From the IMG/VR virus record IMGVR_UViG_2675903650_000016: a DNA stretch of 17,907 nt. One strand, written 5' to 3'. The first letter of the stretch is position 1. Every line of letters starts with the position of its first letter. Position numbers and translations under genes: made by a program. Of the stretch, positions 5,903-6,582 are shown piece by piece. This DNA comes from a virus. Its lineage: Duplodnaviria > Heunggongvirae > Uroviricota > Caudoviricetes. Below the pieces are notes generated by a model. It did no database searches. It was not told the DNA's origin and saw only the letters and a list, made by a program, of their open reading frames with translations.

Positions 5903-6582
5903 TCATGACTGTGCTGCAAAGCTCAGCGCGTCTTCCAGCGCCGCAAACGGATCCACCTCCGGCTTATCCTCATCCTCGCCCCAGCAGAGCATGGCGTCCT
6001 TCAGTGCAACATTCATCCCCTGTGCCCCAAAAACCGCTTTCACGATCTGTGCATTACGGATATCCCCGCGCTCATCACCCAGCGGGGATACCCTGTCGAA
6101 CTCCATCCACATCATCGCCTCGCTCGCACTCAGGCTGTGCCGCAGTTCGGATAAGGTGCGCCCCAGACGGAGCGCAAGTCGCATCAGAAAGCGAATTTCC
6201 GGGCGGGCTACTTTTTTCTGGCCGACTCTGCATCAGCGATCAGTTCCAGTGCCTGACGCAGCAACCGGGCATGTACCGGACCATAGACGGCCAGCACCTG
6301 CTCACGGTCGTCCGGAGTGAACACCCGCTGCAGATCCGTATCACACAGGACATCGCAGAACAGCGTCACATCCGCTTCCAGGTTACGGCGGGTTTTCGCC
6401 ACCACCGACAGGGTATCGTCATCCTCTCCATCACCATTGAGCACTTCCTGCCACAGATACCAGGCCTCTGCCGAAGGCTCCCGCAGCACCACGCTGACAT
6501 TACCCCATTCCGGCACCTTCACCGTTTTATGACGAAACCCTGACAGTCTGGCCAGCGCCAGCGTTTTCAGATCCTTTTTCAT
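5903..6582 (-). CDS. tail assembly chaperone G-T fusion made by programmed -1 frameshift
   Basis: G frame and the downstream 93 aa ORF (5903..6184) are offset by exactly -1. The A AAA AAG heptamer lies at the last two sense codons of G. Reading through gives ...ESARKK then VARPEIRFLMRLALRLGR... with no intervening stop. Confidence 0.7.
6208..6582 (-). CDS. tail assembly chaperone G (lambda gpG-like role)
   Basis: 124 aa acidic protein directly downstream of the major tail gene. ATG at 6582 is preceded by AAGGGGA. The gene ends in a slippery heptamer followed by an overlapping -1 frame ORF, the arrangement seen for lambda G/G-T. Assignment rests on position and architecture; I did not recognise sequence similarity to lambda G. 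Confidence 0.75.
   Translation of the reverse strand: MKKDLKTLALARLSGFRHKTVKVPEWGNVSVVLREPSAEAWYLWQEVLNGDGEDDDTLSVVAKTRRNLEADVTLFCDVLCDTDLQRVFTPDDREQVLAVYGPVHARLLRQALELIADAESARKK
6211..6217 (-). other. programmed -1 ribosomal frameshift slippery site (A AAA AAG)
   Basis: Minus-strand heptamer A-AAA-AAG occupies the final two sense codons of G, immediately before its TAG stop. This is the same heptamer used in dnaX. Position and phase match a G-T frameshift. Confidence 0.7.

Follow-up and report, generated by a model that had tools for sequence, protein, structure and literature searches.

The locus considered here raises the question of how a downstream segment of a tail gene pair is expressed when it lies in the -1 frame relative to the gene before it. 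The locus is found on a stretch of viral DNA of 17,907 nucleotides (nt) (IMG/VR record IMGVR_UViG_2675903650_000016, hereafter the window), in which all genes are on the minus strand, and it consists of gene G, encoding a tail assembly chaperone of 124 amino acids (aa), and of the segment T that follows it. The site at the end of G was assigned, with a probability of about 0.9, as the programmed -1 ribosomal frameshift of a tail assembly chaperone pair, within the HK97-type tail module of a lambdoid, Stx-phage-like Escherichia coli prophage. The sequence anatomy of the junction, the family membership of the products, the conservation of the site and the published frameshifting of an identical 75-nt cassette are all established. 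The site is not new: it is one of the HK97 gp13/gp14 family, a measurement of its junction dates from 2013, and a matching cluster was catalogued in 2014. The novelty implied by the original prediction, which had been made from the sequence alone, does not hold, as A AAA AAG occurs commonly in the family and the cluster is already in the literature.

The open reading frame (ORF) of G was identified, by translation, to extend from an ATG at 6582 to a TAG at 6210..6208, with a Shine-Dalgarno (SD) sequence, AAGGGGA, positioned 9 nt upstream of the start and giving an anti-SD pairing of -8.4 kcal/mol. Residues 1-124 of 124 were matched to Pfam family PF06222, Phage_TAC_1 (E=1.1e-61, 206.7 bits, cut-off 25), in agreement with the chaperone identity first proposed for this gene. 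This was the only family matched at E<=0.01, with no match obtained to PF06894 (Phage_TAC_2), the family of lambda gpG. The C-terminal codons of G read ...GCC AGA AAA AAG TAG, the last two sense codons being AAA (6216..6214) and AAG (6213..6211) with an A preceding them at 6217. As had been predicted, G thus ends in the heptamer A AAA AAG (6217..6211), in the correct X XXY YYZ phase, and the next ORF lies in the -1 frame with no intervening stop: this frame is open from 6232 to 5906, is not interrupted between the heptamer and an in-frame ATG at 6184, and closes with TGA at 5905..5903. The interval originally put forward, 5903..6582, matches the start of G and the stop of T exactly.

The productive overlap between G and the -1 frame was found to be 22 nt, so a fusion requires a shift inside those 22 nt, and the sole in-phase X XXY YYZ heptamer present there is A AAA AAG. 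The string AAAAAAG occurs eight times on both strands of the window, against an expected 2.4 ± 1.4 and with one of 200 shuffles reaching eight, and by itself it is therefore weak evidence. Arithmetic on ORF coordinates excluded the four remaining minus-strand copies, with those at 15101, 15056 and 11865 being at codon position 1 of their ORFs and that at 17845 lying outside any assigned gene. The case for a frameshift site rests on position, phase and conservation, and not on the heptamer count.

A shift at the heptamer would yield ...SARKK-VARPEIRFLMRLALRLGRT..., with the junction peptide ...SARKKVARPEIR. The predicted GT fusion is of 226 aa, and its computed mass of 25.4 kDa, alongside 14.0 kDa for G alone, agrees with the approximately 25 kDa and 14 kDa that had been anticipated. 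The T segment was matched to PF06223, Phage_tail_T (E=6.1e-19, 68.7 bits, cut-off 25.9), over profile positions 1-71 of 73.

Frameshifting at this junction has been measured. A 'phage tail assembly chaperone' cluster, comprising 41 genes and described as similar to HK97, was predicted by Antonov et al. 2013, and two of its members were examined in a GST-MBP reporter in E. coli with 6% and 7% frameshifting (PMC3711429). The insert used for fs-gene 15618692 of GeneTack cluster Phage_TAC, a 75-nt sequence reading GCT_GAT_...AGA_AAA_AAG_TAG..._GTC_TGG, gave a value of 7% ± 0.79 (PMC3711429 Supplementary Table S2), and Phage_TAC is absent from the clusters listed as also showing internal initiation (PMC3711429). 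This insert is identical to window 6237..6163, with no difference detectable at the junction, and the reporter assay suggested along with the original prediction had thus already been published. Furthermore, Sharma et al. 2014 catalogued a cluster of 53 genes, A_AAA_AAG_25, with the typical gene ECs1801 and the label 'tail assembly chaperone; [true]', giving a frameshift product of 226 aa, a frame-0 product of 124 aa and a length of 124 aa as far as the motif, and noting an overlap with GeneTack cluster no. 10 (PMC4066793). The product lengths of the window are exactly these, and the E. coli O157 prophage cluster (ECs1801, A_AAA_AAG_25, fs-gene 15618692) shares with it the position of the heptamer at the last two codons. 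As far as can be told, ECs1801 and fs-gene 15618692 are the same gene as G of the window, the link to ECs1801 resting on lengths, motif and name.

Comparison of the locus to its homologues was performed using tblastn with the fused GT protein as query, and junctions were taken from phage loci and from 25 bacterial genomes, the bacterial loci being retrieved with a 7-sequence alignment. Matches in two pieces and two frames were found for HK97-like coliphages and for phages of Salmonella, Klebsiella, Vibrio/Proteus and Burkholderia, and the two-frame arrangement recurs in homologues from Salmonella, Klebsiella, Proteus, Xenorhabdus, Rahnella, Salinicola and Burkholderia. The -1 join is annotated explicitly in the records of HK97, HK446 and Bcep176. 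In all 25 of the distinct junctions, which represent at least ten genera and have 43-66% protein identity to the window, the shift site was found at one position of the alignment, where the ...EA-KK tail of G ends. Five forms of Lys/Asn-codon site occur among them (A AAA AAG, G GGA AAG, G GAA AAG, A/G GCA AAG and A AAA AAC), meaning that the shift site changes type freely yet stays in one place in the alignment.

With regard to the distance from site to G stop, A AAA AAG abuts TAG in the window clade, phi467 and Proteus/Vibrio, abuts TAA in Rahnella, and is separated from the stop by 12 nt in Xenorhabdus and by 30-33 nt in Burkholderia. G GGA AAG abuts TAG in Salmonella, and lies 3 nt from the stop in the mEp390 type and 15 nt from it in lambda, the latter distance also being that of G GAA AAG in the HK97 type. 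A/G GCA AAG abuts TAA in Klebsiella and Pantoea, and A AAA AAC abuts TGA in Salinicola. A stop directly 3' of the shift site is consequently a feature of several independent junction types, but not of the HK97, mEp390, Xenorhabdus, Burkholderia and lambda types. After the site, the -1 frame of nearly all junctions encodes the peptide V-x-x-P-x-x-x-F-L-M-x-L-A-L-R-L-G-R-T. The nine -1 frame codons 5' of ATG 6184 are conserved across genera as amino acids (V, P, F-L), and the residues between the shift site and the Met are therefore under protein-level selection in the -1 frame, which is intelligible only if they are translated within a fusion. Close relatives were represented by 79 IMG/VR viral contigs, all with at least 92% identity, a set that informs on invariance and not on diversity; the heptamer and TAG are kept in 79 of 79, with five junction variants seen and with nearby bases varying.

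Homologues without a canonical heptamer were also observed. In the HK97 type (HK446 and HK97) the site reads cgG GAA AAG, and in five loci of Klebsiella, Raoultella and Pantoea A/G GCA AAG is followed by TAA, with only an A AAG tetramer and the stop left. In the Klebsiella type an ATG is located 2 nt after the G stop, making translational coupling possible in that lineage.

The distribution of the locus bears on whether the two frames are juxtaposed by chance, or whether T is the decayed remnant of a once-continuous GT gene, an explanation with which the excess of AAAAAAG in the window would be compatible. A 741-nt region was found to have 95-100% identity to 92 phage records, mostly of Stx1- and Stx2-converting phages, and to occur in 1246 of 5426 complete E. 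coli genomes, approximately a quarter. Two-frame arrangements this widespread, their recurrence in homologues of several genera from Salmonella to Burkholderia, the full-length Pfam matches retained by both G and T and the measured frameshift of 7% all stand against chance or decay, which is already refuted by the conservation and reporter data and whose probability is negligible.

Public annotation describes T in another manner. Records of PGAP/RefSeq and GenBank phages contain a separate 93-aa T coding sequence (CDS) beginning at ATG 6184, which is 26 nt 3' of the G stop, and on identical DNA RefSeq uses the names 'phage tail assembly chaperone' for G and 'phage tail assembly protein T' from this ATG. 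In a collection of 15 billion proteins the exact 124-aa G and the exact 93-aa T, the latter under the name just given, were each found on at least 1000 contigs. T could accordingly be a separate protein made by an independent start or by termination-reinitiation at ATG 6184, with the heptamer being incidental; the Met is kept in most homologues, and the ATG 2 nt past the G stop in the Klebsiella type, where the shift site is only a tetramer, also favours this explanation. However, anti-SD pairing at ATG 6184 is -3.5 kcal/mol, which is weaker than the mean of -4.0 kcal/mol for random 22-mers and amounts to no SD, while the other gene starts of the module have pairings of -5.8 to -12.8 kcal/mol. 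Two Xenorhabdus species have Leu in place of the Met and Rahnella has Phe, the -1 frame codons upstream of this residue are conserved as described above, and the identical cassette yields a 7% frameshift fusion in a cluster not listed with internal initiation. Expression of T as a separate protein is therefore highly improbable, and ATG 6184 is most likely an internal Met codon, in line with the earlier suspicion that it is probably not used on its own. On a side note, the look-up cluster containing G in the protein collection has a 238-aa major tail protein as its representative, and most of the members listed are likewise major tail proteins, which suggests an artefact of clustering.

A number of points weigh against a programmed ribosomal frameshift at this site. 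The exact 226-aa fusion was not found in the collection of 15 billion proteins, public annotation treating T separately. The value of 7% was obtained in a reporter with short flanks, outside the native operon, and the GST-MBP reporter does not separate ribosomal slippage from the insertion of one A by RNA polymerase. No downstream stimulatory structure was evident, the 118-nt fold from the heptamer having a z of -0.17, and the best anti-SD pairing within the 25 nt 5' of the heptamer, where an SD-like stimulator would be sought, was -3.0 kcal/mol. The catalogue entry for A_AAA_AAG_25 likewise records no SD and no structure stabler than its surroundings, with a ΔΔG of 0.020 ± 0.023 (PMC4066793, Table S8). 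In a lacZ reporter, bare AAAAAAG gave 0.29% frameshifting, rising to 4.3% with IS911 stimulators and to 39% with the IS3 pseudoknot (PMC4066793). Set against the 7% of the cassette, although the reporters differ and the values are not directly comparable, the 0.29% of the bare heptamer implies a possible context effect.

The insertion of one A by RNA polymerase in the run of six A's (6217..6212) would place GT in a single frame and give an identical protein (...RKKVARP...), and since the published reporter would register either route, transcriptional slippage has to be considered as the source of the fusion. Orthologous genes such as dnaX are known to use either route in different species. Set against this, the run consists of six A's only, with realignment being tied to runs of more than seven A's in the literature cited by PMC3711429, and the homologue sites G GGA AAG, G GAA AAG and A GCA AAG have three to four A's, which cannot support polymerase slippage. 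Moreover, few ribosomal shift heptamers of E. coli are more efficient than A AAA AAG when a stimulator is present. The likelihood of transcriptional slippage is thus considered to be very small. A ribosomal shift is most likely, because the A run is only six and homologue sites with three to four A's still allow tRNA-Lys to re-pair.

With respect to the elements that may assist such a shift, the search for a stimulatory structure downstream of the heptamer, which the original prediction had advised, revealed none close by: a scan of local windows detected no hairpin starting within 15 nt downstream. A downstream stimulator of the dnaX or IS type was rejected on this basis, together with the 118-nt fold. 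The only strong local hairpin, at 6176..6157 (-14.6 kcal/mol, z=-2.62), is situated 34 nt 3' of the heptamer and 6 nt after ATG 6184, a distance too great for a classical stimulator. In a codon alignment of 31 sequences, the codons of its stem (GCG, CTC, GGG and CGC) account for four of the seven least variable of 56 conserved degenerate columns, with normal variation in the loop and flanking codons and with the other Gly columns preferring GGC or GGT. CTC and GGG are non-preferred codons in E. coli. Most Enterobacterales homologues retain the hairpin; it has been lost from the sequences of the Klebsiella type, Xenorhabdus, Salinicola, Burkholderia and lambda. Covariation among 28 homologues was not significant, at 0.049 against 0.035, a value reached by 53 of 500 shuffles, and a register slid by +2 scored higher. 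What the sequences offer in support of a functional hairpin is consequently its synonymous-site conservation, and the putative element may be unrelated to frameshifting, its membership in the signal being uncertain.

It is conceivable, albeit doubtful, that the abutting UAG or the hairpin raises the shift from approximately 0.3% to approximately 7%, or that the hairpin blocks re-initiation at AUG 6184 and with it the production of free T. If true, either role would mark an element that acts at long distance or against re-initiation, unusual for a G/GT system in which the slippery site alone is generally considered sufficient. For its part, the abutting stop codon may be stimulatory. The idea of a ribosome collision, in which the hairpin pauses a leading ribosome and a trailing one stacks on the heptamer, was rejected as a main route because ribosomes in the 0 frame would terminate at UAG before reaching the hairpin.

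The locus can be compared to several known systems. Xu, Hendrix and Duda reportedly described in 2004 a conserved -1 frameshift in the tail assembly chaperones of long-tailed double-stranded DNA phages (G/GT type). The features of this type were found in the window, namely overlapping ORFs between the major tail and tape measure genes, a -1 ORF open across the end of G with an in-phase slippery site in the overlap, a downstream ORF without an initiation signal of its own, and an arrangement and shift site that are conserved despite divergence. A fusion produced at a low percentage is provided by the published reporter value of 7% ± 0.79 for the identical insert.

HK97 gp13/gp14 resembles the window in its PF06222 G (203.3 bits for gp13), its T domain and its gene order, with approximately 60% identity over the fusion, and gp14 is described in its record as 'translated due to a -1 frameshift'. 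It differs in that the site is the near-canonical cgG GAA AAG, 15 nt before the G stop in an overlap of 49 nt, whereas in the window A AAA AAG abuts the stop in an overlap of 22 nt; in addition, a moron (gp15) is placed between GT and the tape measure gene of HK97. The claim that the window reproduces the lambda G/G-T arrangement stands for its logic, its gene order, the PF06223 T domain (54.3 bits for lambda T) and a low-percentage -1 shift on a Lys codon, but not for the G part, as lambda gpG matches only PF06894 (Phage_TAC_2) and G of the window belongs to the HK97 gp13 family. Lambda differs further in having G GGA AAG at 15 nt before the G stop and a T part of 139 codons compared with 102.

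The heptamer had been described as of the dnaX type and not that of lambda. This is correct for the heptamer itself, which is identical to that of E. coli dnaX (gamma/tau) and shares its decoding by tRNA-Lys, and the resemblance ends there. In dnaX an upstream SD-like stimulator and a close stem-loop accompany a shift of approximately 50%, whereas in the window neither the SD-like element about 10 nt upstream nor the stem-loop 5-9 nt downstream is present and the shift is approximately 7%. Furthermore, the shift shortens the product in dnaX and lengthens it in the window.

On the proposed mechanism, most ribosomes would make the 124-aa G and terminate at UAG 6210..6208, with a minority (approximately 7% in the reporter, and probably a similar proportion in the phage) slipping back one base on A AAA AAG, which would be decoded by the single E. 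coli tRNA-Lys species. The slipped tRNAs would re-pair on AAA-AAA and GUA would be read next, followed by translation of 102 codons through the T domain to give the 226-aa GT fusion. In lambda, the tape measure protein is bound by gpG in many copies and by gpGT in few, the major tail protein is brought in through the T domain, and neither chaperone is still present when the tail is completed (PMC5009743). By analogy, many G and few GT copies may coat the tape measure protein encoded just downstream, with the T domain recruiting the major tail protein encoded just upstream and with neither chaperone remaining in the virion, a role for G and GT that is suggested by the homology of the T domain and by gene order.

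Features of the locus and of the genes adjoining it, with positions given on the window
Feature	Position	Strand	Basis
Major tail (tube) protein gene with C-terminal Ig-like domain, directly upstream of G	6597..7313	-	Pfam Ig_3, I-set, Phage_TTP_11, Phage_tail_2; RefSeq 'major tail subunit'
Gene G, tail assembly chaperone, 124 aa, 14.0 kDa	6208..6582	-	ORF and translation, PF06222, SD
Stretch identical to published reporter insert	6163..6237	-	Exact string match, 75 nt
Last -1 frame stop 5' of shift site	6233..6235	-	Frame translation; confines a productive shift to 6232..6211
Slippery heptamer A AAA AAG	6211..6217	-	X XXY YYZ phase; spans the last two sense codons of G
0-frame UAG stop abutting the heptamer, possible pause element	6208..6210	-	Read from sequence
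T segment, -1 frame, 102 codons (VARPEIRFLMRLALRLGRT...) and TGA 5905..5903	5903..6211	-	Translation, PF06223
In-frame ATG, annotated start of separate 93-aa 'T', most likely an internal Met codon	6182..6184	-	Anti-SD pairing, homologues
Hairpin UGCGCUCC-GUCU-GGGGCGCA, 8 base pairs, within T coding sequence (L-A-L-R-L-G-R-T)	6157..6176	-	Local fold
Tape measure protein gene, 1080 aa, directly downstream of T	2613..5855	-	Pfam Phage_HK97_TLTM 7.6e-90, TMP_3, Tape_meas_lam_C

The genes surrounding the locus follow the order major tail, G, T and tape measure, and farther upstream genes for tail completion, head-tail connector, portal, protease-capsid fusion and terminase were identified. Between the stop of T (5903) and the start of the tape measure gene (5855), an AACCGC-UGAG-GCGGUU hairpin followed by a U run was seen by eye at 5874..5894 (-). 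It resembles a weak intrinsic terminator, and was not reported by the terminator scan. Two sites resembling terminators, at 7393..7377 and 7350..7336 (-), were reported by the scan a short way upstream of the major tail gene, and terminators are annotated at comparable places in the records of HK97 and HK446.

The head module (8847..13257, -) was found to have an unusual order, with terminase, protease-capsid fusion, a 73-aa ORF and the portal gene (8847..11108). The protease-capsid fusion (11320..13257) is of 645 aa and combines an S78 prohead protease with an HK97-type capsid domain; in the related EC2 prophage in RefSeq the capsid CDS is flagged 'frameshifted' and the portal CDS is called longer. 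Inside the tail module, a full-length gene for an OmpC-like porin was identified at 909..2072 (-) (Pfam Porin_1, E=1e-140; RefSeq 'porin OmpC'), with a minor tail protein M-like gene (2279..2620) and the tail protein L gene (1..741) as its neighbours. This porin gene has the look of a moron carried by the prophage.

Among long-tailed phages the G/GT frameshift is textbook knowledge, and its occurrence in the window is real but ordinary: the E. coli prophage cluster appears in two genome-wide screens, and the junction has been measured. The practical point concerns annotation, as RefSeq and GenBank keep T as a separate gene of 93 aa and omit the fusion. The annotation of a ribosomal-slippage join, if made, would correct thousands of records.

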